Virus record (IMG/VR): IMGVR_UViG_3300031215_000011 | Coordinates: 1-64,000 of that record | DNA from: a virus | Strand: one strand, 5' to 3' | DNA length: 64,000 bases | Part shown: piece after piece, positions 6,510 through 32,467 of the stretch | How positions within the stretch are numbered: position 1 is the first letter of the stretch | How the letters are laid out: each line of letters starts with the position of its first letter | Made by a program: the position numbers and the translations under genes | The notes under the pieces: generated by a model | What the model was told of the DNA's origin: nothing | Seen by the model: only the letters and a program-made list of their open reading frames with translations | Database searches by the model: none

Positions 6510-6928
6510 GAGAACCAAGGAAAAAGAAAACTCATGGAGACTTAGATTTAACTAAGCCCATTGATAAAACTAAATTGATTCAAGAGGATTGCTTCGGAAA
6601 GGAGTGGGATATGGGGAGTAAAGACTGCCCTATTTGCCATGATAACGAAGTGTGTGGAATACTATTCTCAGACTTAGTAAAGAAGAAATCTAAACAGATT
6701 CAAAAAGGCAAGCCTACTTTTTTAGACAAAGCTTTTTTCAGTAAGAAATTGACTACTGCTTTGGACAAAGCTTTATCCGATAGGGGAGAGGTGGAATTAG
6801 AAGAGGTTTACGATGTAGTTAAACTCAAGGCTAATGTTTCAGACCGTGTGGCGATAAGAGAGTGGGTTAAGCGGTTCGCAAATGATAATGGTTACATAAT
6901 ACAAGGAAAAGAAATATGGAAGGTGTAG
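6506..6928 (+). CDS. hypothetical protein
   Basis: 140-aa ORF, translationally coupled on both sides. Confidence 0.6.
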   Translation: MREPRKKKTHGDLDLTKPIDKTKLIQEDCFGKEWDMGSKDCPICHDNEVCGILFSDLVKKKSKQIQKGKPTFLDKAFFSKKLTTALDKALSDRGEVELEEVYDVVKLKANVSDRVAIREWVKRFANDNGYIIQGKEIWKV

Positions 6929-9504
6929 GGGACAGCAAATCGGGTCTTATGATAGTAGGGGAGTTCCCTACTTACTATGACTACCAAAATGAAAAGGTAA
7001 TGGCTTCTGCGAAGTATTTACTGTTAAAGAAAGTGTTTGATAAAGCTTTGGAGGACCCATGGGACAATTACTACAGGACTTATTTAGTTCAAGAAGTTTG
7101 CGGTAAAGATACTCCCCCCACTCCTGAGCAGATAGAAGAAGGGAAGGCTCAATTAATAGATCAGATTAACCGATTAAAGCCTAAAGTAATATTAGCTGTA
7201 GGAGGTACTGTTTTACAGGCACTGACAGGTAGAACAGGTATATTGAAACAGAGGGGCAAAATTCTCAATTTAGAGATAGGGGAAACATCCTGTAAGATAG
7301 TTCCAATACTTTCTCCAAGGTATGTTGAGGTAAATGATAAGCACATCAAGAATTTTGCTTACGACGTAGAGAAAGCGGTAAATCTCAGCAAGGGTTTTGA
7401 GTTCACTTCCAAGGCTTCTACCAATACTGTTTTAGTCGATACTGTAGCGAAAGTAGAGGAGTTGATTACTTACATAAAACAAACAGGTACGGCTTCTTTT
7501 GATACTGAGACTACAGGGTTAAATACCCGTGAGGCAGGGTTCAGGGCTACAATGTTATCGTTCACTTTTCAGCATGGGTCGGCTTGGGTTATACCTTTGT
7601 TCCACGACGAAACTCCTTTCTCAAGGGATGAGATTTTGTACATTTTAAAGTTACTGCAGAGAGAGGTATTTGCTAATCCTAACATTGAGAAGATTGCTCA
7701 AAACATGAAATACGATATGCACGTATTAGCTGTTTACGGGGTTACCATTTGGGCAGGCGAGATGCACGATACAATGTTAATGCACCACTTGCTAGATGAG
7801 ACCCAATCTCACGGTTTGAAGGATTTGGTTTCTACTTTTTTCAAACAGTATGCAGGGTATGAGGCAGAATTAGGGGAGAAACCTGATTGGGCTTCTTTGT
7901 CTATCAATACCTTGGTTCCTTATGCAGGTATGGATACCGATATGACTTTGCGTTTAAAGACTTTGTTCGAGAGTTATTTATTGGAGGATGAGCAGTTGTA
8001 TTGTATTTACCGTAACCTCACAATGGCAGCCAACAAGGTTTTATGGCAAGCGGAGCATGAGGGTATGCTTATTGACAAAGAGAAGTTGTTGAGGTACATT
8101 GGAGAGGCTGAGGATATTTTAGAGGCCCAAGATGAGGCGTTGAGGGATAACGGTACTGTTCACAGATTTCAGAGAAAAGTAACACTACGTAAAAAGAAAG
8201 AGAAATTAAAGGAGTTAGATGAGAAAATAGGGAAGTGTAAACCTTTGAAGTCAGGCGGCCAAAGCGTGAGGGAGGTCAAGTATCGAGAACTTAGGAACCG
8301 GATTAAAATTGAGGGCATGGAGACGGAGCCTGTTAATTTCGGTTCTCCTGTTCAGTTAGGGGATTTGCTGTACACGGATGACGGGTTTGGTTATAAGATG
8401 CCTTACGATAAAAAAACTAGAGGTCCTAAACCACTAACAGGAAAAGATTTTATAGCGGAGTTAGAAGATAGTACAGGATTCATAGAGGGGTTGCAAGTTT
8501 GGAGGTCGATAAAAAAAATGCTTTCCACTTACTTGATGGGAATTTACAACAGGCTCGATGATTTTGATAGGATACATACGAGTTTCTTACTCCATGGAAC
8601 AGAATCAGGGAGGCTATCAAGTAGAAACCCTAACCTTCAAAATATTCCTAATTTATCTAAGGTTAAGAACCCTTTAGCGGTCAAGGTAGTAAAGATGGTA
8701 AAGGATGTTTTCAAATGTCCTGATGACCACTTTATAGTTCAATACGATTACTCTCAAGCGGAGTTAAGGATTATAGCAGATTTCGCTAATGAGAAAACCA
8801 TGATAGAGGCGTACCGGAATGATGAGGATATTCACGCTAAAACAGGTGCTAAATTCGCAGGGGTAAGCTTAGAGAATTTATACAAGATGGAGCCCCTTGA
8901 GATCAAAACTCACAGGACGAATGCTAAGGCAGGTAATTTCGGTTTGATTTACCTTATGGCTCCTGAGGGCTTAGTAGAGTATGCTAAGTCTAATTACGGG
9001 CTTATTTTAACCTTGGCTCAAGCTACTAGGATGTGGAATGATTTCTTTGAGTTATATCCAAGGTTGTTAGTGCACCACGACAAGTATATCAACTTGGCTA
9101 GAAGAGACGGGTATGTTAGAACCCTTTATGGCAGAAAAAGAAGAACTCCCGATATTAAGAATGAGAATGAGTACATCCGAGCGATGGATGAGAGGGTGGC
9201 TGTAAATAGTCCTATTCAAGGTACGGCAGGGGAGTTTACAATATTTGCGATTGCTTTACTAGGTTTGAGATTAGACCCACGGGTTAAGTTGGTCAATACG
9301 GTTCACGATTCTATTATTTTCTACATTCCTAAAGATATTTTCGATGATACCATGATTTTGATTAAAGAGACCATGGAGAACTTACCTAATGAGGATTATT
9401 TTGGAACAGAGTTGAAGCATTTAAAAATGAAGGTGGATGCTGAGATTAGTCCTAACAGTTGGGGAGATTTAAAGGACTTCGATTTAAAAAAATATTTGAA
9501 TTAA
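6916..9504 (+). CDS. Family A DNA polymerase with 3'-5' exonuclease and an N-terminal UDG-like domain
   Basis: Exo I SFDTETTGL, Exo II QNMKYDMHVL, Exo III YAGMDTDM. Pol motif A YDYSQAELRI, motif B RTNAKAGNFGLIY, motif C VHDSIIF. The N-terminal ~160 aa (GLMIVGEFPT...ILAVGG...ILSPRY) resembles family-4 UDG. Confidence 0.93.
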   Translation: MEGVGDSKSGLMIVGEFPTYYDYQNEKVMASAKYLLLKKVFDKALEDPWDNYYRTYLVQEVCGKDTPPTPEQIEEGKAQLIDQINRLKPKVILAVGGTVLQALTGRTGILKQRGKILNLEIGETSCKIVPILSPRYVEVNDKHIKNFAYDVEKAVNLSKGFEFTSKASTNTVLVDTVAKVEELITYIKQTGTASFDTETTGLNTREAGFRATMLSFTFQHGSAWVIPLFHDETPFSRDEILYILKLLQREVFANPNIEKIAQNMKYDMHVLAVYGVTIWAGEMHDTMLMHHLLDETQSHGLKDLVSTFFKQYAGYEAELGEKPDWASLSINTLVPYAGMDTDMTLRLKTLFESYLLEDEQLYCIYRNLTMAANKVLWQAEHEGMLIDKEKLLRYIGEAEDILEAQDEALRDNGTVHRFQRKVTLRKKKEKLKELDEKIGKCKPLKSGGQSVREVKYRELRNRIKIEGMETEPVNFGSPVQLGDLLYTDDGFGYKMPYDKKTRGPKPLTGKDFIAELEDSTGFIEGLQVWRSIKKMLSTYLMGIYNRLDDFDRIHTSFLLHGTESGRLSSRNPNLQNIPNLSKVKNPLAVKVVKMVKDVFKCPDDHFIVQYDYSQAELRIIADFANEKTMIEAYRNDEDIHAKTGAKFAGVSLENLYKMEPLEIKTHRTNAKAGNFGLIYLMAPEGLVEYAKSNYGLILTLAQATRMWNDFFELYPRLLVHHDKYINLARRDGYVRTLYGRKRRTPDIKNENEYIRAMDERVAVNSPIQGTAGEFTIFAIALLGLRLDPRVKLVNTVHDSIIFYIPKDIFDDTMILIKETMENLPNEDYFGTELKHLKMKVDAEISPNSWGDLKDFDLKKYLN

Positions 9505-9505
9505 A

Positions 9506-9538
9506 TTTTTGGAGTTCTCAAAAATTTTAATACTTTTA
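9506..9538 (+). promoter_or_regulatory. Phage promoter family copy (degenerate)
   Basis: tttttggagttctcaaaaattttaatactttta. Reverse iteron core TTTTACCAC at 9534-9542. Confidence 0.45.
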
Positions 9539-9572
9539 CCACTCATTTATAAGAACTAAAAATTAATAGCTT

Positions 9573-10502
9573 ATGTTAAACATTAAAGGTCTAAAGGAAG
9601 TTCAGCAAGACCTTAATAAAAAGAACTCCAATGACGATTTGTATATGTACCACCAGGACATTTCTAAGGATGGTACACATATCCGAGTTTTGCCTCCTGT
9701 TCCTGAGTTGAACGGAATGTATTTTGTAGAGCAGACTTTGTTTTGGCTCGATAAAGTTCCTTATGTATCTCCCAAAACTTTTGGACAGCCCTGCCTTATC
9801 GAGAAGGTGCTTAAAGCAGCTAAAGATGACGATGATGAGGATGTAGTTGCTTTGGCTGATGAGATTAGCGAAAAGTACCAATACTTGATTCCTTGTTTAT
9901 TGTTGGATTGTGAGTACGATGATGATAATGAGTTAATCAAGAATGACGTTATAGGCGTTAGGGTATTAGCGTGTGGTCCTCAATTGATGAAGGAAATTAA
10001 CCGTATAGTAACCAATGCTCAGTACCAAAACGGCACAGAGGATGGTATTACTGATATGGAAAAGGGTTGGAACATCACTGTATCCAAAGAAGGTACGGGT
10101 AAAACCACAAAGTACACGGCTATTGGATGGGTACAATCTACTAAGTACCCAAAGCAGTATTACAAGGATGTTCCAAACGTGCTTGAGTTAACTAGGAAAA
10201 GAATGTACTCAGATGATTACCTTGGTGCTGTAATGGAGAATTACTTTTACGGGGAAGAGTTACCTGAGAAAACTGAGCCTAGGTACAAAGCTGTTGCTAA
10301 AAAAGAGGCGGAGCAGGAAGAAGAGGAAGAGACTCCTAAGAAAAAGACTGCTCGTAAACCTGTTGCCAAAAAAGCTACCTCTTCTACTAAGAAGAAAGCA
10401 GTTAAAGTGCCCGAGGAAGAGGAGGAGGAAGATGCTCCCAAAAAAGCTACCAAGAAAAGAAGCTTATTATCTGATATTAACATGGACGAAGAGGATGAGT
10501 AA
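9573..10502 (+). CDS. putative single-stranded DNA-binding protein
   Basis: 309 aa. Lys/Glu-rich low-complexity linker and an acidic C-terminal tail (NMDEEDE), as in phage SSBs. Directly follows the polymerase. No fold-level motif verified. Confidence 0.4.
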   Translation: MLNIKGLKEVQQDLNKKNSNDDLYMYHQDISKDGTHIRVLPPVPELNGMYFVEQTLFWLDKVPYVSPKTFGQPCLIEKVLKAAKDDDDEDVVALADEISEKYQYLIPCLLLDCEYDDDNELIKNDVIGVRVLACGPQLMKEINRIVTNAQYQNGTEDGITDMEKGWNITVSKEGTGKTTKYTAIGWVQSTKYPKQYYKDVPNVLELTRKRMYSDDYLGAVMENYFYGEELPEKTEPRYKAVAKKEAEQEEEEETPKKKTARKPVAKKATSSTKKKAVKVPEEEEEEDAPKKATKKRSLLSDINMDEEDE

Positions 10503-22248: not shown

Positions 22249-22740
22249 ATGAAAATTATTTTAGTATCAAGTACCAATCCTATTGATGTAAATGTTAATA
22301 GAGCAGAAACCGATGAGAGTATTCTACAGGTGCTACAGACAAGGTTAATAGAAGGGTTAGTTCACTTCGAGTATAAAAAGGCAAATGGGGACGTTAGAGA
22401 GGCGTACGGCACTTTGAACTCTAAGTACATCAAACAGGACCCGACAGGTTACGCTAACTCACGTGTGGAAAGATTTTACCAATCAAAGTTTAGTAAGGAT
22501 TATACCATACTCCCTATAGATAAGATTTTCAGTACGGCTGATAAGAAAGAGGTATTTATAGTTAATTTAGAGGAGGAAGAGGTTAAACTTTTCGATGATG
22601 GTCTCATGGATTTGAATTTACCTCATTTTATTTCAGTAGTTAAAAAAGTACATCAGCCGGAGCATCTTCTCAAGTATTGGGATTTAGAGGCTCAAGGATG
22701 GAGAATGTTCACTAAAGATAGCATAATAGCAGTTTACTAA
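22249..22740 (+). CDS. hypothetical protein
   Basis: 163-aa ORF. Confidence 0.6.
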
Positions 22741-23408
22741 TGAGGAATTTTTACGAGGTATTAGGGGTATCTAAAACAGCTACTTTAAAAGAGATCAAAA
22801 AAGCCTACAGGGACAAGTCTAAAAAGTTGCATCCTGATAAAGAGGGGGGCACTAACGAGCGGTTTGCTGAGTTATCTCAGGCTTACGAAGTATTATCGGA
22901 TGAGGCTAAGAGAAAAAGGTACGATGAAACAGGCGAGTTCAAAGAACAATCGGACCCTTTTCCATCCTTCGCTATGCACTTTATCAGCATGAGTATTGAT
23001 ATTTGCTTTCAGACTAATTTTAGTGTGGAATATGACGATTTTGTAAAGGTAATATCTAAGCATATCAATACAGGCTTGAAAGAGGGTTCAAAACTTCTAA
23101 AAAAGTACGAATCAGTCAGAGGAAAGCTTAAAAAGATGCAGCGCAGATTGTGTAAGAAAAGTAAAGAGGGAGAGGATAATTACGTAGCTATGGTTATGGA
23201 ATCTAAATTAACAGATACCGAAGAGGCTATTCAAGGTATAAACACTCAATTGGAGATGTTTGAGAAGCTTTTAAGCTTGTTGGGTACATACGAATACCAA
23301 GTGGATGTTAAACCCGATTACGTAATAAGGAGAGATCGAGAACGTAAGGCAACCCATGAGGGGTTATCTTCATTAATTGAAAATATTACAGGACATGGAA
23401 GAATGTAG
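22740..23408 (+). CDS. J-domain (DnaJ-like) protein
   Basis: [32 protein letters not shown]...[15 protein letters not shown] is a canonical J domain with HPD. The C-terminal part is unrelated to the DnaJ zinc or CTD regions. Confidence 0.9.
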
Positions 23409-23409
23409 C

Positions 23410-23865
23410 ATGGTTATCAAAGTACAGGAGGATGGAAAAGCTTGGGGACCCACTCAAGGAAGAGTATTAACTTTTGAATCTGATACAGAGGCGGTAAATT
23501 TCTGCACTTCTTTGGCAGTATGGGAGAACAGAGCCATTAGGTTGAGCAAGAAAGAGTTTACTGAGGCTAGAGTATTTTACCCTCCTTTACAACCGCCTCA
23601 GCAGACAGAATTAAGGGAGCGGTTAGAATCAATGCTCCCCGATGATTTTTGGGATAAGGTAGAGAAGAACTTACCCAATTATGGAAAAAGAGATGATGTA
23701 GCTTATTCTGATGACTTGCAAAAGTACGTAGATGGAGAGGCTGATGAGGATTGCAGACAAAGAGTAGAATCGAGTGTAAGTTTGCACCCTGAGTTGGAGA
23801 ATACGATTTTGAATATTAAATTATACATTGAAGCTTTAGAACATGACAGAACAAGAAAATTATGA
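23410..23865 (+). CDS. hypothetical protein
   Basis: ORF opens at 23377. The ATG at 23410, just after the J-protein stop, is preferred. Confidence 0.55.
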   Translation: MVIKVQEDGKAWGPTQGRVLTFESDTEAVNFCTSLAVWENRAIRLSKKEFTEARVFYPPLQPPQQTELRERLESMLPDDFWDKVEKNLPNYGKRDDVAYSDDLQKYVDGEADEDCRQRVESSVSLHPELENTILNIKLYIEALEHDRTRKL

Positions 23866-24163
23866 TTCCTTGATGGCAGTTATTGAGGAGGTAACCCCTA
23901 CTCAGGATAGAGTAGTAATTTGGGAGCAGGAGGCGTCGAGAGCCACTGAGTTAGGTATTATACTGATTAACCCCATCGAGGACGATCAGAGAGTAGGGCT
24001 AGTGGTTCGATTAGGTGTAGGCTATAGTGATAAACCTTTTGAGGTTGCTCAAGGCGATACGGTCATCTATGGGAAGTTGGCAGGTACTAAATTTGAATGG
24101 AAAGGTGGAACTTATCACTTGATGAGGGAAGCAGATATTTTTTGCATATTAGAAGAGAAATAA
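23843..24163 (+). CDS. GroES-like co-chaperonin (Cpn10)
   Basis: PTQDRVVIWEQ...ELGIILI...GLVVRLGVG...VAQGDTVIYGK...HLMREADIFCILE follows the GroES pattern P-DRV-I...GI-L...G-V...G-G...GD-V...E-DI--I-E. Confidence 0.78.
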   Translation: MTEQENYDSLMAVIEEVTPTQDRVVIWEQEASRATELGIILINPIEDDQRVGLVVRLGVGYSDKPFEVAQGDTVIYGKLAGTKFEWKGGTYHLMREADIFCILEEK

Positions 24164-24921
24164 TGAATAAATTAGATATAGTAATTGCTCCCTTGAGCGA
24201 TAAAGAGTATTGGGAAAATGAATCTTATGCTTGTGTAAATGTAGTAGGTATATTTGAAGGTCCAAGCAGAGCAGTTATAGAAGCTACAGATAGGATATTA
24301 GGAGTTAACGCTTGGAGGTTTAAAGACCCTCTAAAAGGTCAAGATTATCTTGCAGCTACTTTAGGTTATAGAGATTTAATTTATAAAAAACCTGAGAGAG
24401 TATTTAAGAATTTTTTGAATTGGTTTAGGTCAAAAGGTAATCCGAGTAAGATAGCTTTCTTAGGATTAACTCAAGAACCTAATGGTTACTGTTACCGTTA
24501 CTTGTTTCTCAATTTTTTCAGAGAGCATTTAGGTATGTACATGCCAAAGTATCGAATTATTGATGTAGGAGTAAAGGGTATTTCCCAAACTGAGTTTAAT
24601 AACATAGCTTACGATTCTAATTATTGGCAGCAGACTAAGATAACCTTTGATAAAGAGCACGTAGGTAATTTGTTAGAATCTACTTCATGGACGTTTGCTA
24701 AAACTATGCCTGAGAATCCTCATGAATATACTTTACGAAAAAATTGGAGTAGTGTAGAGGATTATTTACAAGTTTCAGCTTACATAAGGTCTTATGGAAA
24801 ATTGGAAGAATTTTACGGTCAATATTATAGAGTGTTGTATTTAGGGGGGCATAAGTATTGGACACATCCTGTAGATGTAACAAATAAAGACGTAGATTTA
24901 ATCAACAGAACCGGCATCTAA
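24163..24921 (+). CDS. hypothetical protein
   Basis: ORF opens at 24097. The TAATG-coupled ATG at 24163 is preferred. No assignable motif. Confidence 0.6.
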   Translation: MNKLDIVIAPLSDKEYWENESYACVNVVGIFEGPSRAVIEATDRILGVNAWRFKDPLKGQDYLAATLGYRDLIYKKPERVFKNFLNWFRSKGNPSKIAFLGLTQEPNGYCYRYLFLNFFREHLGMYMPKYRIIDVGVKGISQTEFNNIAYDSNYWQQTKITFDKEHVGNLLESTSWTFAKTMPENPHEYTLRKNWSSVEDYLQVSAYIRSYGKLEEFYGQYYRVLYLGGHKYWTHPVDVTNKDVDLINRTGI

Positions 24922-24933
24922 TTATCTCGTTTA

Positions 24934-24965
24934 TTTCGTAGATGTACAAAATTTGATTAGATTTG
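24934..24965 (+). promoter_or_regulatory. Promoter (TTCG-N19-TAGATTTG), divergent member of the family
   Basis: tttcgtagatgtacaaaatttgattagatttg. The only promoter-like element between 24.9 and 31.8 kb. Confidence 0.5.
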
Positions 24966-24984
24966 TCTATCTAATTAGAGGTAC

Positions 24985-25353
24985 ATGAAAAACGGGAAAC
25001 ACTTAATAATTGATGCGTATAAATGCGATAAAAATCCAATGTGGGATGTGGCATTGATAAAAGAAGTTTGTTTGAAAGTAACAAACATGATTGGTTTAAG
25101 ACCACTCTCAGAGCCTTTGATTTATGAGGTGGACGAGAGCATGATTGCCAAAGAAGAGACAGGAATTACAGGCGGTATTATATTTATGGAAAGCCATTTT
25201 ACTTTTCATGCTTTCCCTGAAAAGCATTACTTTTCAGCCGATATTTACAGTTGTAAAGGATTTGACCATGAAAAAGTGGTTGAATTTCTTGCAACTGTTT
25301 TTGGTTCCAAAGACATGAATCATACTGTTTTACTTAGAGGGAATAAACTTTAA
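24985..25353 (+). CDS. speD: S-adenosylmethionine decarboxylase proenzyme-like (pyruvoyl-dependent, small SpeD/SpeH type)
   Basis: 122 aa. KHLIIDAYKCD and FMESHFTFHAFPE match the E-S self-cleavage site and HTxPE motif of small bacterial/archaeal AdoMetDC. Confidence 0.8.
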   Translation: MKNGKHLIIDAYKCDKNPMWDVALIKEVCLKVTNMIGLRPLSEPLIYEVDESMIAKEETGITGGIIFMESHFTFHAFPEKHYFSADIYSCKGFDHEKVVEFLATVFGSKDMNHTVLLRGNKL

Positions 25354-25356
25354 AAC

Positions 25357-26118
25357 ATGAAAAAAACTTTCGTTATAGTATCTGTATCAAGCAGAGTTAG
25401 GGAGTTAAACATCCTAATAGCAAGTATTAAAAGATTTAATAAGTTTGAGGATTACTCCATAAACTTATTGATGCAAGATAATACAGGCAAAGCTATGGAT
25501 AAGATACGCCATAAAGAGAGGTATGATAATATTTTTGTGGAGTCTAAAATGTTAGGCTGCCATACAGCGAGAATAAAATTATTGAAAAAAATAAATTACG
25601 ATTTGTACATTAATCTTGATGATGATATGGAGTTAATTGAAAGTACCTCTTATCAAGAATCCATAGATAAAGCTTTTGAAAAAAGTACGGGTTTTGTTAT
25701 GACTAATTGGGGTCGTTCGGAATCTGAGATATTGAAAAAACTCCCTGTACAGCACAAGTTTATAAAGCAAATTTTGATGTATCAAGGGGGCGGTATGATT
25801 TACCGAGATGAGATTGCTAATTTAATGCGAGAGTTACCTGAGGCGGAAGCAGTATTTGATTCAGCTTGGAGCTTAACCGCTTATTTAAAAGGTTATGTTA
25901 ATTATCGTTACTTAGGTTCTTTATCTATTCACAGAGTGTGCCGTTCAGGAGGTATGCAGGAGTTTATGAAAAGAACTAATTTGGAACTTACTTTGACTGA
26001 GTTTATAGATTACAAACAATCTAAAAGAATAGTAGGGAATGGTTATGATTGGTTAATTCCTTTAGACAAAGATTTAAAACCTTCTGCAAAAGAAGAACAT
26101 ATAAAAAATATCAAGTAA
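25357..26118 (+). CDS. putative GT-A fold glycosyltransferase-like protein
   Basis: N-terminal FVIVSVSSRVRELNILIASIKRF and a DxD-like NLDDDMEL, as in GT2-type enzymes. Weak. Confidence 0.4.
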   Translation: MKKTFVIVSVSSRVRELNILIASIKRFNKFEDYSINLLMQDNTGKAMDKIRHKERYDNIFVESKMLGCHTARIKLLKKINYDLYINLDDDMELIESTSYQESIDKAFEKSTGFVMTNWGRSESEILKKLPVQHKFIKQILMYQGGGMIYRDEIANLMRELPEAEAVFDSAWSLTAYLKGYVNYRYLGSLSIHRVCRSGGMQEFMKRTNLELTLTEFIDYKQSKRIVGNGYDWLIPLDKDLKPSAKEEHIKNIK

Positions 26119-27245
26119 TGTCTAATATTAGTCGTATAACAAAATCTGAGAGTGTTCTTGTAGAAGCCCGAAAAAGAATTGATTACTTACTTGATGAATT
26201 TGATAAAGTAGTTATTGCCTTTTCAGGTGGGAAGGATAGCACGGCAACTTTAGAGTTAGCATTGGAGAGAGCAAAGTTAAAGAACAAACTCCCATTGGAT
26301 GTGATGTTTATTGACCAAGAAGGAGAGTTCTCCCATGCTATTGAGTACATCCGTAGAATAAAGGAAAGAACTGATGAGGTTAAAATGTGGTGGTATCAAA
26401 TACCGATCAAGATTAATGTTAGTTCTAACTCAGTAACCAACCATTTGTTTTGTTGGGACCCTGATGCGGAGGATGTATGGATTAGACCTCATGAACCTGA
26501 TGCGATTACGGAGAATACTTATTGTAAAGAGGATACTTACTTCAATGATTTATTTAATGCTATTATAGCTAAAGACTTTGCAGGGTACACCGTTGCTTTA
26601 TTGGGAGGAGTTCGTACAGAAGAGAGTCCGAAAAGGCTTTCAGGGCTTACCAAAGGAAATGTTTACAAAGGAATAACTTGGGGGAAGAAGTTAAAGACTG
26701 AGGGAATGGTATCCTTGTACCCAATTTATGATTGGAGTTACACGGATGTTTGGAAATATATTGCAGAAAATAATTTTGATTATTGCAAGATTTACGATTT
26801 GATGTACAGCATTGGATTATCTACTTCTAAGATGAGAGTTTCATCACTATTCCATGAGAATAGTGTTGGAAGTTTTTCGTATCTTGCAGAAGTAGAAAAG
26901 GATAATTGGAATAGAATAGTCCAGAGAATTTATGGGGCCAATACCTACAAAACAAGTGCATCGTTTTATGAATGCCCTGACCAACTTCCTTATATGTTTA
27001 AAACGTGGGAAGGTTACGCAGGTCATTTATTTGATAAACTTATTTCAGAGCAGCTTAAACCCGTGTTTGAGAATCATATAAAGAATACCCATGCACGATT
27101 TTTGAAGTCCATGAAAAAGTATCCGAATAATAGTAATGCGAATGAGGATAGATTTTGGCAAGTGGTAGCTACTACTTACTTGAAAAATGATTTTTGCTTT
27201 ACACTGTTAACCAATCTATTGATTAGATTAAATATGAATATGTAA
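26118..27245 (+). CDS. PAPS reductase-family (PP-loop) protein, IbrA-like
   Basis: PP-loop VVIAFSGGKDSTATLELA. About 375 aa with a long C-terminal extension, as in IbrA-type proteins. Followed by a ParB-like partner. The TAATG-coupled start at 26118 is preferred over 26049. Confidence 0.8.
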   Translation: MSNISRITKSESVLVEARKRIDYLLDEFDKVVIAFSGGKDSTATLELALERAKLKNKLPLDVMFIDQEGEFSHAIEYIRRIKERTDEVKMWWYQIPIKINVSSNSVTNHLFCWDPDAEDVWIRPHEPDAITENTYCKEDTYFNDLFNAIIAKDFAGYTVALLGGVRTEESPKRLSGLTKGNVYKGITWGKKLKTEGMVSLYPIYDWSYTDVWKYIAENNFDYCKIYDLMYSIGLSTSKMRVSSLFHENSVGSFSYLAEVEKDNWNRIVQRIYGANTYKTSASFYECPDQLPYMFKTWEGYAGHLFDKLISEQLKPVFENHIKNTHARFLKSMKKYPNNSNANEDRFWQVVATTYLKNDFCFTLLTNLLIRLNMNM

Positions 27246-27943
27246 TGATAAGTGAGGCACTAATAAAAGCGATCAAAGCTGAGGTATCCAACGAAGTATC
27301 CAACGGAGGGGACAAGGATTCAGTTATAGAGGGTATCAAGCAATACCTTCACGATTCAGTTTCTGATAAGAAGGCTCATCCTGTAAACAACGTGAGGTGG
27401 GTTCCTATCGAACAGGTGGTGGCTAATGATTACAATCCAAACTCAGTTGCTAAAACTGAGATGAAGCTATTACTCAAGTCGATTGAGAAGGATGGTTATA
27501 CTCAGCCTGTAGTTGTGGTTTGGGATGAGGACAAAAAGAAGTACGTAATTGTAGATGGCTTTCACAGGACTACAGTAATGAAAACCAACAAAAGCGTTCA
27601 GGAATCTACTCAAGGTAGGTTACCCGTGGTAGTGCTTGAGAAGGATATTAATGATAGGATGGCAGCTACAGTTCGTCATAACAGAGCGAGAGGTACGCAC
27701 TCAGTTGTTAGCATGAGTGAGATGGTATTTTCTATGTTAGAAGAGGGGTGGGATGAATCAGCTATCGCCAATGAATTAGGAATGGAAGCTGAGGAAATTG
27801 TGAGGTTAAAGCACATTACAGGATTCAGCAAATTATTTGAGGATAGAGAGTACAATAAATCATGGGAAACAAGGAATCAATTATTAGAACGTAAAAAACA
27901 AAAAGATGAGCAAGGAGAGGGCTACGGGATTAAAAATAAATAA
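27245..27943 (+). CDS. ParB/Srx-fold protein, IbrB-like
   Basis: VANDYNPNSV, VIVDGFHRT and RHNRARGTH are typical ParB N-terminal (sulfiredoxin-fold) motifs. Paired with a PAPS reductase. Confidence 0.8.
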   Translation: MISEALIKAIKAEVSNEVSNGGDKDSVIEGIKQYLHDSVSDKKAHPVNNVRWVPIEQVVANDYNPNSVAKTEMKLLLKSIEKDGYTQPVVVVWDEDKKKYVIVDGFHRTTVMKTNKSVQESTQGRLPVVVLEKDINDRMAATVRHNRARGTHSVVSMSEMVFSMLEEGWDESAIANELGMEAEEIVRLKHITGFSKLFEDREYNKSWETRNQLLERKKQKDEQGEGYGIKNK

Positions 27944-28481
27944 AGTATTTTTAGAGCGGAATGAATATACAGGAATGCTTGCTAAGAAGCATGGTGTAGT
28001 TAATGGCAGTATTGTAGAAGTAGGCGTGTTGAGAGGGGCGTTTTCAAAAGTTTTGTTAAGTATTAATCCTGCTTCATTAACTTTAGTTGACCCTTATAGA
28101 AGGTTTTCAACTGAGGAGTTCCCCGATTATACGGATTACTCACAGTCTAAATGGGATGAACTTCATGCTAAAGTAAAAAATACCTTCGAGGCAGATAGTA
28201 GAGTTTCCATATTAAGAAATGTTTCAGAGAATGCGGTTAGAGAGTTTAAAAATAATTCTTTAGATATGGTTTACTTAGACGGGAATCATACTTACCCTTT
28301 TATCTATAAAGATTTGAGACTTTGGTATGCTAAAGTTAAAAAAGGAGGAATTTTAGCAGGACATGATTACCCTCTTCCAAGTGTTAAAAAAGCGGTGCAG
28401 GAGTTCTGTAAAGAGAAAGGCATAAAAAGTATTCAAATTACTAAATCTGCAAGTGTAGCAAGTTATTATATCGTTAAGTAA
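27906..28481 (+). CDS. class I SAM-dependent methyltransferase-fold protein
   Basis: IVEVGVLRGAFS (motif I-like), LTLVDPY, MVYLDGNHTY and GGILAGHDY resemble Methyltransf_24/TylF-type enzymes. An alternative start lies at 27975. Confidence 0.65.
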   Translation: MSKERATGLKINKVFLERNEYTGMLAKKHGVVNGSIVEVGVLRGAFSKVLLSINPASLTLVDPYRRFSTEEFPDYTDYSQSKWDELHAKVKNTFEADSRVSILRNVSENAVREFKNNSLDMVYLDGNHTYPFIYKDLRLWYAKVKKGGILAGHDYPLPSVKKAVQEFCKEKGIKSIQITKSASVASYYIVK

Positions 28482-29077
28482 TGGAATTAGTTTACAAGAA
28501 AAGAAAGGTTAAGAATCTTAAACCTTTCAAGAAAAATTATAGAGAGATAACCGCTGAGGCTATCAATGCTGTGGCTAAATCCATTCAAACGTATGGATAC
28601 AATGTGCCGATCATTGTAGATTCAAATGGGGTAATCATTGCAGGTCATGTTAGACAGAAGGCACTCCTCCAATTAGGAATAGAGGAAGTGGTTTGCGTGG
28701 TTGTGAAAGAGAACGATGAGGAGACCAAGGATAAGATTAGGTTATTGGACAATGCTATAGGGGAGGCTTCTGATTGGGATGAGAAATCATTAGGTAAGGA
28801 ATTACGAATGATTAAGGATTTAGCAGGCGAAGGTACATGGGATAACTTCGCTTCTATGTGGGGAGACACCAAGGATGCTTTGGATAAGCACTTACAAACA
28901 AGCTTAGGAGGAGGTATCCGAGAGGTAAACGATAAGGACTTAAAGAAAGCAGAGCAGAGAGAACACGATAAGTTCCAACAAGTGAAGGAGGACAATAGAG
29001 ATAAGAAGGTATTATGCCCTGAGTGTGGATACGAGTTTCTAATTAGAGTACACGATAAAGATGAAAAACGAAGTTAA
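28481..29077 (+). CDS. ParB-like N-terminal domain protein with C-terminal zinc-ribbon half (paralog 1)
   Basis: LKPFKKNYREIT, VPIIVDSNGVIIAGHVRQKALLQLG, LLDNAI and C-terminal CPECGYEF. Confidence 0.7.
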   Translation: MELVYKKRKVKNLKPFKKNYREITAEAINAVAKSIQTYGYNVPIIVDSNGVIIAGHVRQKALLQLGIEEVVCVVVKENDEETKDKIRLLDNAIGEASDWDEKSLGKELRMIKDLAGEGTWDNFASMWGDTKDALDKHLQTSLGGGIREVNDKDLKKAEQREHDKFQQVKEDNRDKKVLCPECGYEFLIRVHDKDEKRS

Positions 29078-29603
29078 GGTTGACGATATTGCTTTAAAGG
29101 GAGCAGAGGTAAAACAGGTTCCACTACAGGAGATCAAACCCTATGGAGGAAACCCACGTAAGAACGACAAAAGTGTTTATATGCTTGAGCAGGCTATTGA
29201 GCGGTTCGGCTTCTTAGTACCTATCACAGTCGATAAGGACAATGTAATTATTACAGGTCATTCAAGATACACGGCAGCAAAGAACTTAGGACTTGATACA
29301 GTAGCTACGATTACCTTGGACCACCTTTCAGAGCGTGAGGTAATGGAGTACCGGATTGCGGATAATAAAGTGGCAGAATTTACCTTTTTGGACTTTGAAT
29401 TAAAGGGAGAGGAGCTAAAAGGATACACAAAGGACGATGAATTGATGAGTTTTGCTTTTCCTGAATTTGATAGCAACGAGTTCGAGGAGAAAGAAGATGA
29501 GGATAGAGATACGAGTGGCGAACCTACTGAATGTATGTGCCCCAACTGTTTACATGAGTTTGATGCTAACAGTCAGTTGATGGGAGAGGAGCCTAAAGAC
29601 TAG
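29061..29603 (+). CDS. ParB-like N-terminal domain protein with C-terminal zinc-ribbon half (paralog 2)
   Basis: IKPYGGNPRKND, VPITVDKDNVIITGHSRYTAAKNLG, IADNKV and C-terminal CPNCLHEF. Same architecture as the upstream gene. Confidence 0.75.
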   Translation: MKNEVKVDDIALKGAEVKQVPLQEIKPYGGNPRKNDKSVYMLEQAIERFGFLVPITVDKDNVIITGHSRYTAAKNLGLDTVATITLDHLSEREVMEYRIADNKVAEFTFLDFELKGEELKGYTKDDELMSFAFPEFDSNEFEEKEDEDRDTSGEPTECMCPNCLHEFDANSQLMGEEPKD

Positions 29604-29618
29604 GTTCAGCCATAACAA

Positions 29619-30047
29619 ATGTTACACAATAAAAAAAGAGAGATGGCAGTAGCAGGAGAAATGAAGAAAAGAACAATTACACAAAAGCGTAAAGCTATGT
29701 TGGCAGCCCTAAAGGTTTCGATGGGGGTGGTACAGGTTGCTTGCGATAAGGTTGGTATATCAAGACAAACCCACTACCGTTGGTTAGAGACTAATGAGAA
29801 GTACAGGAAATCTGTAGAGGATATGCAGGAGGTAGCGTTAGACTTCGCTGAATCGTCTCTTCTCAGGAACATTCAGAAGGGGAAGGAGAGTTCGACTATT
29901 TTCTATCTTAAGACTAAAGGGAAGAAACGAGGCTACCTTGAAACTCAGGTCAACTTGAATACGGATGTATCATTGGAGCAGTTAGCAGGAAAGGACGTAA
30001 CCGAATTAGAGGAAATGTACCTTGCTTTGAAGAAAGGCAACAAGTAA
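29619..30047 (+). CDS. terS: terminase small subunit
   Basis: 142 aa. HTH (CDKVGISRQTHYRWL), then SLLRNIQKG...STIFYLKTKGKKRGY, typical of small terminases. Immediately upstream of terL. Confidence 0.7.
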   Translation: MLHNKKREMAVAGEMKKRTITQKRKAMLAALKVSMGVVQVACDKVGISRQTHYRWLETNEKYRKSVEDMQEVALDFAESSLLRNIQKGKESSTIFYLKTKGKKRGYLETQVNLNTDVSLEQLAGKDVTELEEMYLALKKGNK

Positions 30048-30112
30048 ACCCAAACTATAGTGTGGGGATATGCTCAGGATTACGGGGTCGATACAATATA
30101 TAGTTGGTATTT

Positions 30113-31786
30113 ATGGAAAAAGAGGTTAAAATATCAAAAGAGGAACTACTTAAAAAACTCATAGAGGAAGAGTTATTTGAGCGTTGGAGGAGAGACCCGA
30201 TGGCTTGGTTAGAGGAGCGGTTAGGCGAACCAAGAAGGCATTTCATGTGGTCAGAGCATGAGGGTTATGAGAATCACAAGTGGGATGGGAACAAAGACCC
30301 GATTGGAGAAGCTTGGATGACTTTTGGTAGGGCTTACGAAGCAGTACAGAGAGGAGAGGACCCTGAATACAGGAATGTAGCTTTAGAGAGTGCAACAGGT
30401 ACAGGCAAAACTTACACTTTAGCAAGAATAGTATTTTGGTTCTTGGATTGTTTCCCGAATAGCTTGGTGGTTACTACTGCTCCATCGGATTCACAGATTA
30501 AGTCAGGATTGTGGGCTGAGATTTCAACAATATTTCCAAAGATCATTGCATTGAGGCCTAATGCAAAAAAGTGGCAAGGGAAATTGGTTATGCAGGCTCC
30601 GAGGAACTTCGCTAAGATGGATGCTACCGAGAGGGAGAAGAGTTTAGGCGATTCGTGGATGGCTAAAACCCATATCACAGGTACGAGTGCCAACAAAGAA
30701 TCAGAGGATAAATTTAGAGGCTTCCACAGGAAGTCAATGTTAATTCTATTGGAGGAGTGTACAGGAATACCCCATCAGATTTTAACGGCTGCACAGAACA
30801 CCTCAACAGGTATGACGAATTACATTTTAGCAGTAGGAAACCCCTCCGACCAAACAGATACACTTCATACGTTCGCAGAGCTACCGAGTGTCAAGAACTT
30901 TCGAGTATCCGCATACGACCATCCGAATATAGTGCTACAAGAGGAACTGTATCACGGTGCGATTACTCAAGTATCCATAAACGAGAGATTGTCCACCTAT
31001 GGGGCGGAACATGGCTTATTCAAGGCAATGGTAAGGGGAATATCTCCTCCACAATCTAAAGATTCATTGATTAGAAGAGAGTGGATTGATAAGTGTGTGA
31101 ATAACCCGAATAAAGATAAATTGTACGGACACGATGCGCTTGGGGTGGATGTGGCTAACTCCGAATTGGGAGATAAGGCTGCAGTTGTTTATGGAAAAGG
31201 TTGTACGGTTTATCGTATGGATGAATTTCAATGTCCCAATGCAACTCATCTTGGATACAATTTGGTATATGAGGATGAAGTATTGGCTGAAAAGGGCTAT
31301 GATGATTATAACATTCCAACCATGTTTGAGTACGGGATACAACCGTATAATATCGGTATTGACGGAGTAGGAGTAGGAACAGCTACGGTAAATGCTTTTA
31401 TTGATATGGGATTGCCTAACGTGGAATCCTTGATGGGAGGACAATGGAATGAAGCTATACCAACTATAGAGGATGGACCTGATGCAGGGAAACCAAAATT
31501 CCGCTTTGGCTCATTACGTTCGCAGATGTGGTGGCAATTGAGGGAGGATTTCAGAATGGGTAAAATAAACCTTGCTTTAACAGATGCAGACCAATTGGAG
31601 GCGTTGAAGAGAGAGTTAACCGTACCCAAGGTAACCATGAGAGAGAATGCGATTGCGGTGGAGGCCAAAGAGCAGATTAAAAAGAGGCTTGGTCATTCTC
31701 CCAACCTTGGAGATGCGTTGGCATATTGGAATTGGATGAGGAACGGTTACAGGGTGGATGCAGGCTTTGTAGCAGCACGATCTTAA
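30113..31786 (+). CDS. terL: terminase large subunit
   Basis: Walker A ESATGTGKTYT and Walker B MLILLEEC. C-terminal nuclease-like region with IGIDGVGVG. The ORF opens with TTG at 30104, and the ATG at 30113 is preferred. Confidence 0.9.
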   Translation: MEKEVKISKEELLKKLIEEELFERWRRDPMAWLEERLGEPRRHFMWSEHEGYENHKWDGNKDPIGEAWMTFGRAYEAVQRGEDPEYRNVALESATGTGKTYTLARIVFWFLDCFPNSLVVTTAPSDSQIKSGLWAEISTIFPKIIALRPNAKKWQGKLVMQAPRNFAKMDATEREKSLGDSWMAKTHITGTSANKESEDKFRGFHRKSMLILLEECTGIPHQILTAAQNTSTGMTNYILAVGNPSDQTDTLHTFAELPSVKNFRVSAYDHPNIVLQEELYHGAITQVSINERLSTYGAEHGLFKAMVRGISPPQSKDSLIRREWIDKCVNNPNKDKLYGHDALGVDVANSELGDKAAVVYGKGCTVYRMDEFQCPNATHLGYNLVYEDEVLAEKGYDDYNIPTMFEYGIQPYNIGIDGVGVGTATVNAFIDMGLPNVESLMGGQWNEAIPTIEDGPDAGKPKFRFGSLRSQMWWQLREDFRMGKINLALTDADQLEALKRELTVPKVTMRENAIAVEAKEQIKKRLGHSPNLGDALAYWNWMRNGYRVDAGFVAARS

Positions 31787-31809: not shown

Positions 31810-31845
31810 AAAATTTTGTAGAACTCCAAAACTTTCTTATCTTTG
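31810..31845 (+). promoter_or_regulatory. Strong phage promoter cassette (identical copy 1 of 4)
   Basis: aaaattttgtagaactccaaaactttcttatctttg = TTTG-N19-TATCTTTG. It is 36/36 identical to the copies at 33495, 35112 and 37506. Confidence 0.8.
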
Positions 31846-31879: not shown

Positions 31880-32467
31880 ATGAAAAATTTTAGAACAAAT
31901 CAAAGACAAGAGTTAATCGAAGGAAATGATTACTCAGTAATAAGAACCTTAAAAATCGGAACTGCTGAGAAAGCTTCGGTTAAGAAAATCACTTACAAGA
32001 AAGGGATGCGTATTTTAACAGGTTACAGAACGGTTTATTTGACGGGTCATTCAGATACTCACATTAAGCAGTTCTTAAAAGAGGCTTGGGGCTTAGAGTT
32101 AGGCAAAGCAGAAAAACCTGTTACTAGCAAAGCGAAGTCTGCTCCTAAGAAAACATCTAAGAAGCCTGCTCCGAAGGCAGATAAAACCTCAACTGATGCA
32201 GCACCTGCAAAAGGAGTGAAGCTTAAAAAGTTCGCTCTTGGTAATGTAGAGGTGGGTAGCAAGGTATTAGTGAGGCTTCCCGTTAGCAAGCAAAGAAAGC
32301 AACCAATAGTTGTGGAAGCTGAGGTTAAGCAGAACGGTATCAATACTCAGTTAAAAAGATTAGGTAAGTCTAAGGGGGTCGTAAAACTGAATGGGACGAC
32401 TGAGACTTACTACATGGATACTAAGACCAACCGAACTAAGTATTTAAAGAATGTAGAAATAGTTTAA
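31880..32467 (+). CDS. hypothetical protein with Lys/Ala/Pro-rich linker
   Basis: 195 aa. The central KPVTSKAKSAPKKTSKKPAPKADK segment is histone-tail-like. Confidence 0.6.
   Translation: MKNFRTNQRQELIEGNDYSVIRTLKIGTAEKASVKKITYKKGMRILTGYRTVYLTGHSDTHIKQFLKEAWGLELGKAEKPVTSKAKSAPKKTSKKPAPKADKTSTDAAPAKGVKLKKFALGNVEVGSKVLVRLPVSKQRKQPIVVEAEVKQNGINTQLKRLGKSKGVVKLNGTTETYYMDTKTNRTKYLKNVEIV

Follow-up and report, generated by a model that had tools for sequence, protein, structure and literature searches.

An IbrA/IbrB Gene Island Upstream of the Terminase Genes of an Uncultured Phage: A Possible DNA Modification Module Linked to Packaging

We analyzed a stretch of 64,000 nucleotides (nt) from the IMG/VR virus record IMGVR_UViG_3300031215_000011 (positions 1 to 64,000 of that record, hereafter the window). 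It is a segment of a phage genome with a GC content of about 0.39, in which 85 of the 90 open reading frames (ORFs) are on the + strand. Our subject is a compact gene island directly in front of the terminase genes, which encodes the predicted ATP pyrophosphatase IbrA and its ParB-type partner IbrB together with a set of putative tailoring enzymes, and which may serve to modify the phage DNA. The features of the island and of the adjoining packaging genes are the following:

24163–24921, + strand: g0, a two-domain protein of 252 amino acids (aa); the exact 252-aa product is on record (P0121)
24958–24965, + strand: candidate promoter box, possibly of the Bacteroidota −7 type, TAGATTTG, situated 20 nt before the start codon of SpeD
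24985–25353, + strand: SpeD-like pyruvoyl decarboxylase with the class 1b fold of the S-adenosylmethionine (SAM, AdoMet) decarboxylases (AdoMetDC); Pfam AdoMet_dc, 6.9e-23
25357–26118, + strand: glycosyltransferase of the GT-A fold (AlphaFold model and Foldseek; NLDDD invariant)
26118–27245, + strand: IbrA-like PP-loop ATP pyrophosphatase with PAPS_reduct and DUF3440 domains (SGGKDS; phrog_2302, 5.6e-79)
27245–27943, + strand: IbrB-like ParB/Srx protein (ParB_N; DGFHRT and RHNRARG; phrog_2159, 6e-74)
27906–28481, + strand: Methyltransf_24/TylF-like class I SAM methyltransferase of the O-methyltransferase type (Pfam, 9e-15)
28481–29077, + strand: small ParB paralogue 1, ParB_N with a short CPxC tail (phrog_620, ~1e-39)
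29061–29603, + strand: small ParB paralogue 2, built like paralogue 1 (ParB_N; phrog_620, ~1e-39)
29619–30047, + strand: terS, terminase small subunit (PHROG terS families)
30104–31786, + strand: terL, terminase large subunit (phrog_2, 1.6e-22; tblastn matches to annotated terminases)

The seven genes from SpeD to the second small ParB, as well as terS and terL, had been proposed in a sequence-only reading of the window, and all of their coordinates and folds proved to be correct in comparisons with Pfam, PHROG, NCBIfam and Foldseek. The matches listed above bear out the pyruvoyl-type decarboxylase, the IbrA-like protein with SGGKDS, the IbrB-like protein with DGFHRT and RHNRARG, the class I methyltransferase fold and the two further ParB-like paralogues. 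The genes are also as tightly coupled as had been described, with a gap of 3 nt after SpeD, overlaps of 1, 1, 38, 1 and 17 nt, and 15 nt before terS. The packaging genes terS and terL, recognized by PHROG, follow directly downstream, and a scan of the + strand between 24.9 and 30.7 kb gave no terminator-like site, again in line with the proposal. The boundary of the island, however, had been drawn too narrowly: the upstream ORF g0, a conserved partner of the module with its true start at 24163, had been missed. The promoter suggested at 24934–24965 did not hold up: it is missing from the output of the sigma-70 scan, and we reject it as a sigma-70 promoter. In this region promoter-like sites are rarer in the same scan than in shuffled sequence (27 versus 34.7). 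The Bacteroidota −7 motif, which TAGATTTG resembles, shows no enrichment in the window, with 77 copies against 73 expected.

To describe how these genes travel in other viruses, we used the best 80 IMG/VR loci anchored on IbrA, which were scanned with profiles and correspond to 64 non-redundant lineages; a scan of viral contigs with the single IbrA protein gave nothing, and the loci were collected with an alignment-based scan. IbrA and IbrB, whose genes overlap by 1 nt in the window, are neighbors in all 64 of these lineages. The GT-A family is present in 6 of the 64 and is confined to the IbrA/IbrB module in 23 of 23 viral loci, while the SpeD subfamily of the island lies inside an IbrA module in 24 of 26. 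As a control we considered the relatives of the methyltransferase: of 80 viral loci with Methyltransf_24 relatives, no more than 8 have IbrA nearby. All six of the relatives closest to the window gene, with identities of 44% or more, are among these 8, and in every one of the 8 the methyltransferase comes after a glycosyltransferase. Because of the reciprocal linkage of GT-A and SpeD, the contrasting control and a direct fusion of the C-terminal domain of g0 (g0C, see below) to SpeD, we conclude from the gene neighborhoods that SpeD, g0, GT-A and IbrA/IbrB are functionally linked. The earlier view of the island as a dedicated system and not a set of chance neighbors is thereby supported.

Close relatives of the island share the order g0-like, variable genes, IbrA, IbrB, ParB, ParB, terS, terL, and it is the variable genes that differ. 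Loci with SpeD usually read small ParB, SpeD, g0C, variable enzymes, IbrA, IbrB, terS. The module usually stands directly upstream of terS/terL, with terS homologues after it in many loci, and the same block is found in unrelated phages that have a Terminase_3 terL, a GP3_package terS, or a terminase followed by an SPP1-type portal. Partners among the 64 lineages are small ParBs (42), a family with a DPPW motif and the fold of N6/N4 DNA methyltransferases (22, one family member scoring above the Pfam N6_N4_Mtase gathering score), a second glycosyltransferase-like family (18) and GNAT proteins (11). The second glycosyltransferase-like family matches gp154 and gp155 of Microbacterium phage Hendrix, which are annotated as hypothetical and as a glucosyltransferase, respectively. 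SNF2 helicases, identified by a Pfam SNF2 match, are recurrent neighbors as well, with 9 loci in the clustering. In one variant arrangement a SNF2-type helicase is placed directly upstream of IbrB-IbrA, as in Flavobacterium phage FCL-2 (L001, 4145–7009) and also in L052, L059, L060 and L069.

IbrA matches PF01507 with 71.7 bits (cut-off 22.5) and DUF3440 (PF11922) with 26.4 bits (cut-off 25), and DUF3440 is also precomputed for most of its homologues. The SGGKDS motif is invariant in alignments of 23 and of 121 homologues, and about 65 residues are near-invariant in the larger one. This conserved PP-loop and the near-invariant residues lead us to predict that IbrA is an active enzyme of the ATP pyrophosphatase type. 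Its alignments contain a single near-invariant cysteine, C112, which is found in 99% of the 121 homologues, and show neither a cysteine dyad or triad nor an ECGLH motif, which is the C-terminal catalytic cysteine motif of CysH. Toward the C-terminal end of the catalytic region there is just one cysteine, C286 ("YECP"), which 65% of the homologues have. A genuine CysH, i.e. a 3′-phosphoadenosine-5′-phosphosulfate (PAPS) reductase, was rejected because TIGR00434 gives 35.8 bits against a cut-off of 165 and TIGR02057 gives 28.6 against 254, with no conserved C-terminal cysteine motif. A DndC-like enzyme was rejected likewise, on the basis of TIGR03183 (27.8 bits against 290), the one conserved cysteine and the lack of matches to Dnd or Ssp partners in the scans of the island.

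For ParB_N the cut-off is 26.3 bits; IbrB reaches 26.9 and the two small ParBs 26.2 and 29.8, the former of which falls 0.1 bit short. The small paralogues also match the N-terminal ParB part of ParB-methyltransferase fusions (phrog_498, PADLOC MTase_II). All three proteins stay far from the partition-type ParB, which we rejected (parB_part, 27.5–27.8 bits against 58.45), and the Pfam and NCBIfam scans of the island gave neither a ParA nor a helix-turn-helix domain match. Of 76 non-identical homologues of the small ParBs, 69 carry a single CPxC motif in a short C-terminal tail. These tails (29020–29077 and 29540–29603 in the window; homologues L003–L040) amount to half a zinc ribbon, which suggests a zinc-mediated homo- or heterodimerization of the two paralogues. 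In a 58%-identical relative (L003), IbrB is extended to 431 aa (9152–10447) by an insert of about 185 aa in the middle of the ParB domain, for which Pfam gives no match. In the same locus an HNH/NUMOD4 homing-endonuclease gene (6885–7379) separates g0 from the gene that precedes IbrA.

SpeD scores 81.5 bits with PF02675 (cut-off 25) and 66.3 bits with the equivalog model TIGR03330, which is under the cut-off of 75.65. Its ESH...H...C pattern aligns with Ser63, His68 and Cys83 of the T. maritima enzyme, meaning that the self-processing serine and the catalytic histidine and cysteine are kept. Its FPE aligns with the WPE/FPE of validated AdoMetDCs and keeps the AdoMetDC-type proline, by which true AdoMetDCs can be told from arginine decarboxylases derived from SpeD (PMC10407285). 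The identity to validated phage enzymes is 22–30%, and tblastn against GenBank phages finds distant relatives only (at most 34% identity). Since the Ser/His/Pro/Cys signature is kept, yet the equivalog score is below its cut-off and the identity is low, AdoMet is the likeliest though unproven substrate. The proposed pyruvoyl-type decarboxylase stands as a fold, with AdoMet as its predicted substrate. The two closest relatives of this SpeD (L114, 6001–6366, 71%; L115, 4620–4985, 69%) are the sole exceptions to the module linkage; these contigs of about 90 kb carry no IbrA, IbrB, ParB or g0C within 5–6 kb of SpeD.

For the GT-A gene, sequence searches against PDB, Pfam, PHROGs, NCBIfam and PADLOC gave no family match and tblastn against GenBank phages gave no match, while a few of its homologues match PF00535. 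The AlphaFold model (predicted local distance difference test, pLDDT, 94.8) is matched by Foldseek to ppGalNAc-T2, TarS and TarP (GT2/GT27) with a probability of 1.0 and E ~1e-8, and the NLDDD (DxD) motif with D88, D89 and D90 is invariant. The earlier GT-A-like call with its DxD motif is therefore borne out by Foldseek of the predicted structure only, not by sequence search. The methyltransferase gene reaches 55.9 bits against a cut-off of 26.3 and has the conserved motifs EVGxxRG and DGNHxY. Pfam assigns it to Methyltransf_24 and TylF only, with no spermidine-synthase family, and NCBIfam gives no match. It had been suggested that this protein acts as an aminopropyl transferase; we rejected this, because its closest relatives accompany glycosyltransferases and not SpeD, which leaves the idea without support.

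The C-terminal part of g0, about 90 aa (about 24655–24921), forms the conserved g0C domain, which is characterized by FAKTMPxNPHxYTLRK ... VDLINR. Homologues of g0 are syntenic upstream of IbrA in L003, L005, L006 and L010, and g0C is found in 25 of the 64 non-redundant IbrA lineages, so that the conserved gene order marks g0 as a member of the module. In total g0C occurs in 1594 representative clusters, either stand-alone or fused. Among its multi-domain members a class I SAM methyltransferase is the fusion partner in 35 of 47, and one protein (P0249) is the direct fusion to the island SpeD subfamily mentioned above. The g0 sequence has no match in PDB, Pfam, PHROGs, NCBIfam or PADLOC and none by tblastn in GenBank phages. 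Its structural model (pLDDT 80) gave nothing at E ≤0.001 with Foldseek, the best values being 0.067 (PDB) and 0.0056 (BFVD), and the weak BFVD matches include a DUF488-domain protein. As far as we found in the literature searched, g0C is apparently undescribed, and so are the fusions that join it to SpeD or to SAM methyltransferases. One homologue that covers the whole of g0 (P0132) is not part of an IbrA module; it is found at 8001–10473 of a 66,625-bp Logan contig (L223), where it adjoins a 523-aa protein with a cytidine/dCMP-deaminase domain and has a cluster of the ThiF-E1/E2/BubE type nearby; the context indicates that g0 occurs in other, possibly conflict-related, settings too. The same protein is recorded from Polaribacter glomeratus, which we rejected as a cultured prophage with the module, the g0 homologue being there in a different context, beside the deaminase-domain gene.

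Taken together, we read the island as a phage DNA modification module that is primed by IbrA/IbrB and linked to packaging, and we rate the chance that this is correct as about even. A DNA target is plausible because the partners include ParBs, N6/N4 DNA-methyltransferase folds and SNF2 proteins, and because small ParBs are activators of a DNA-modifying enzyme. Indeed, experiments have established that a thymine dioxygenase needs small phage ParBs, which have no DNA-binding domain, for its activation on double-stranded DNA (PMC13229309), and the small ParBs of the island fit the description of these proteins. ParB has also been proposed as a director of DNA-modification enzymes during packaging (PMC8256090). 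From the idea of a pathway that decorates phage DNA, as it was first put forward for this island, the dedicated module is thus retained and the DNA target is plausible; the role of the methyltransferase as an aminopropyl transferase is not, and neither the suggested timing nor a counter-defence role finds support.

In the proposed mechanism, IbrB and the two small ParBs would deliver or activate the enzymes on the double-stranded phage DNA. IbrA would prime the DNA by an ATP-dependent adenylation of a target oxygen, with the carbonyl of a base and a phosphate of the backbone as candidates. Both have parallels: TilS adenylates a base carbonyl on transfer RNA (tRNA), and an adenylated phosphate is a proposal for DndC. 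The adenylated site could then be replaced by a nucleophile or offer a handle for further groups. In the present phage, SpeD (probably by way of decarboxylated SAM), g0/g0C, the GT-A enzyme and the O-methyltransferase-type enzyme would build the final group, with g0/g0C as a putative partner of the SAM-using enzymes. In related phages the tailoring set would be swapped for N6/N4 DNA-methyltransferase-fold proteins, the second glycosyltransferase family, GNAT acyltransferases and SNF2 helicases. The modified DNA would finally be packaged, with the module being expressed together with the packaging genes. What the phage would gain may be an evasion of restriction, a help in packaging or a means of regulation.

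A more far-reaching version, which we consider possible yet doubtful, is that IbrA/IbrB provides a second priming route that is independent of a dioxygenase. Adenylated duplex DNA would here undergo substitution by a SAM-derived aminoalkyl group or amine, glycosylation and O-methylation to give a lysidine-like or phosphate-linked adduct, and g0C would be a new accessory domain of the pathway around SAM and decarboxylated SAM. An adduct of this kind has never yet been observed in DNA. Iyer et al. (2013) are said to predict lysidine-like and modified-SAM-derived DNA bases in phages.

Several points weigh against DNA modification. The window is of metagenomic origin. In the literature searched there is no functional study of a phage IbrA/IbrB pair, and the only genetic phenotype known for the founding IbrA/IbrB is not DNA modification but an activation of prophage gene expression, a label that is used in PMC4490671. 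An enzyme that would generate an acceptor (5mYOX, a hydroxymethylase or a thymidylate-synthase homologue) was found neither in the island nor in 20 early ORFs, a search that left out small ORFs and the 9 kb outside the window, and the GT-A enzyme consequently has no evident acceptor. GT-A, O-methyltransferase and GNAT enzymes are, moreover, just as typical of the decoration of glycans or proteins. Finally, 11 of 14 non-redundant SpeD lineages combine SpeD with a partner of the N6/N4 methyltransferase fold; the present phage has no such partner, and its SpeD product is therefore without an evident user.

The prophage phenotype would be directly understandable if IbrA/IbrB and the small ParBs were regulators of late genes or of packaging. 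The ParB-type proteins would then bind near the start of the late operon or at the pac site, the ATPase partner would activate late transcription or assist the terminase, and the accessory enzymes would be separate morons in a permissive slot. The usual position of the module immediately upstream of terS/terL agrees with this; in many phages this slot holds the gene of a late activator such as RinA or ArpU. We nevertheless judge such a regulatory role unlikely, because it explains neither that GT-A (23/23) and SpeD (24/26) are nearly exclusive to the module, nor the g0C fusions with SpeD and with SAM methyltransferases, nor the fully conserved PP-loop and some 65 near-invariant residues of IbrA. 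If the target were instead not DNA, the GT-A enzyme, the O-methyltransferase and, in relatives, GNAT could decorate a virion protein, tRNA or a small molecule, and SpeD could feed polyamines for the condensation of DNA during packaging. The PP-loop precedents TilS and TtuA do act on tRNA, and GT-A, TylF-like methyltransferases and GNATs are typical glycan-tailoring enzymes. Phage SpeD homologues are established genes of polyamine metabolism (PMC9992855). The constant partners are ParB/Srx proteins, however, and the variable slot is repeatedly occupied by SNF2 proteins and by proteins of the N6/N4 DNA-methyltransferase fold. The island showed no homologue of spermidine synthase, and its SpeD subfamily is confined to the module, unlike the free-standing SpeD genes that cyanophages carry as auxiliary metabolic genes (AMGs). 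To us this makes a target other than DNA rather improbable.

A further alternative is sulfur chemistry on DNA: a phosphorothioation of the Dnd/Ssp kind or a thiolation of bases, with IbrA as the sulfurtransferase, IbrB in the role of DndB and a cysteine desulfurase of the host as the sulfur source. IbrA belongs to the PAPS-reductase family, matches BrxP, DndC and SspD (PADLOC) and the NCBIfam model of DndC weakly, and has the near-invariant C112; IbrB is, like DndB, a protein of the ParB superfamily (PMC10853773). We hold sulfur transfer to be distinctly improbable in view of a DndC score that is far below its cut-off (27.8 against 290 bits), an IbrA without cysteine dyad or triad, the lack of a DndA, DndD or DndE homologue in the island in Pfam, NCBIfam and PADLOC scans, and the glycosyltransferase, O-methyltransferase, GNAT and SpeD partners, which would be left without a role. 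Scarcely credible, in our opinion, is that the genes are AMGs that became neighbors by chance, with a cysH for sulfur assimilation and a speD for polyamines. Virome surveys do class DUF3440-bearing PAPS-reductase homologues as cysH AMGs (bioRxiv 10.1101/2021.01.05.425418). IbrA, however, is without the C-terminal catalytic motif of CysH and remains at 35.8 bits below the 165-bit cysH cut-off, its linkage to IbrB is obligate (64/64), and the reciprocal linkage of SpeD and GT-A argues against chance. On these linkage data we rejected accidental AMG neighbors.

Outside the island, the window is that of a phage which, by our sequence comparisons, is without a close cultured relative. Megablast of the island against GenBank phages gave no match, and terL is at most 27% identical to the GenBank phage terminase matches listed by tblastn. 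The early region codes for a primase, a SNF2-type helicase, a family A DNA polymerase and Mre11/Rad50-like proteins, in addition to a MazG-like protein, a PD-(D/E)XK nuclease, an amidase, RNase H, a PIF1 helicase, a WYL_2 protein, a DnaJ protein and Cpn10. The family A DNA polymerase (6916–9504) has an N-terminal domain of the uracil-DNA-glycosylase superfamily (PF03167, 3.4e-10) in front of its 3′-5′ exonuclease and polymerase domains. Shortly upstream of the island lie the DnaJ J-domain protein (22740–23408, 1.6e-23) and the Cpn10/GroES co-chaperonin (23843–24163, 8.9e-16). In the late region the octamer TATCTTTG, which matches the Bacteroidota −7 promoter consensus TAnnTTTG, occurs on the + strand at 31838, 33523, 35140, 37217, 37534, 38886 and 44364. 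At least the first two copies are intergenic and lie just before the ORF starts at 31880 and 33554. The copies may be late promoters and may point to a Bacteroidota host.

PAPS-reductase-like genes are among the AMGs most often reported from viromes, and the virome surveys cited above read the DUF3440-bearing homologues as genes for sulfur assimilation. Because the linkage to IbrB is obligate and the CysH motif is missing, our data suggest that the DUF3440-bearing clade has been mis-assigned as cysH. They indicate that this clade is the constant enzyme of a modular system which is linked to packaging and probably directed at DNA; the module is widespread and commonly mis-annotated. If it is true that IbrA/IbrB prepares DNA to receive glycosyl, aminoalkyl, methyl or acyl groups, it would represent a second major route of post-replicative hypermodification beside TET/JBP, with consequences for the evasion of restriction, for artefacts in virome sequencing and for enzyme tools. 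The core is carried by the cultured Flavobacterium phages FCL-2 and FCV-1, in the order SNF2-IbrB-IbrA, and by Microbacterium phage Hendrix, which makes the question directly testable.

Among known systems, the IbrA/IbrB of E. coli and of other phages (PHROG 2302 and 2159) belong to the same two families and are adjacent and co-oriented, with PAPS_reduct plus DUF3440 and with ParB_N. Homologues of the pair are present in 223 GenBank phage records, and more than 3600 IbrA homologues are found among metagenome proteins at E ≤1e-10. The island is consequently a variant of a known, biochemically uncharacterized kind, and the initial view that the combination corresponds to no nameable hypermodification pathway is overstated in so far as the kind is not new. 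In FCL-2 and Hendrix the two proteins are annotated as "PAPS reductase" and "ParB-like". The pair lies between terL and the portal gene in FCL-2, while in Hendrix IbrA is found at the end of the genome, where its company consists of a methyltransferase, an N-acyltransferase and two genes of the glycosyltransferase-like kind. Compared with the IbrA/IbrB of known phages, the island adds SpeD, g0, the GT-A family and Methyltransf_24. For the exclusive linkage of the SpeD subfamily and GT-A, for the g0C fusions and for the parallel to dioxygenase clusters drawn below, we found no description in the literature searched.

The DndB/DndC, SspD and BrxP systems are similar in that a PP-loop enzyme of the PAPS-reductase family is paired with a protein of the ParB superfamily. 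They differ from the island in that the matches are far under the cut-offs, in that IbrA has no cysteines for an Fe-S cluster or a dyad, and in that the scans of the island gave no DndA/D/E or SspA/B/C partners; furthermore, their context is a host defence island, whereas ours is a phage packaging operon. TilS is a mechanistic analogue only. As a PP-loop ATP pyrophosphatase with an SGGxDS motif it activates the carbonyl of a pyrimidine by adenylation, after which an amine takes the place of the adenylate, and IbrA has a weak NCBIfam match to its N-domain (E 0.0026). TilS belongs to another PP-loop subfamily, however, acts on tRNA and has no ParB partner.

Croceibacter phage P2559S has a cluster (ASCH, ParB/N6_N4 methyltransferase, AdoMetDC) that shares with the island the class 1b SpeD and in which a DNA-methyltransferase fold and a ParB are likewise found upstream of the terminase. 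Its AdoMetDC, which has been validated experimentally (PMC9992855), is encoded by a gene that overlaps the gene of the ParB-N6_N4 methyltransferase fusion just before the terminase. P2559S contains no IbrA/IbrB, GT-A or g0C, and its SpeD is only a distant relative (23% identity in the alignment). This cluster represents an independent link between decarboxylated SAM, a DNA-methyltransferase fold, ParB and packaging.

Finally, the island resembles the 5mYOX (TET/JBP) clusters, with which it shares the small ParBs consisting of a nucleotide-binding domain and a short tail, a glycosyltransferase, an O-methyltransferase and the neighborhood of the terminase, and, in its relatives, GNATs and N6/N4 methyltransferases (PMC13229309, PMC8256090). 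In the hypermodification clusters, 5mYOX co-occurs with glycosyltransferases (31%), ParBs (27%) and terminases (19%), and also with O-methyltransferases, GNATs and N6/N4 methyltransferases (PMC13229309). A ParB, a glycosyltransferase and an O-methyltransferase beside the terminase, as in such clusters, are all found in the island. Unlike in the 5mYOX clusters, we detected neither a TET/JBP dioxygenase nor a C5-methyltransferase in the island and the 20 early ORFs. The place of the dioxygenase is taken here by a PP-loop ATPase with its own ParB/Srx partner as the constant enzyme, and the priming chemistry must therefore differ from that of 5mYOX.

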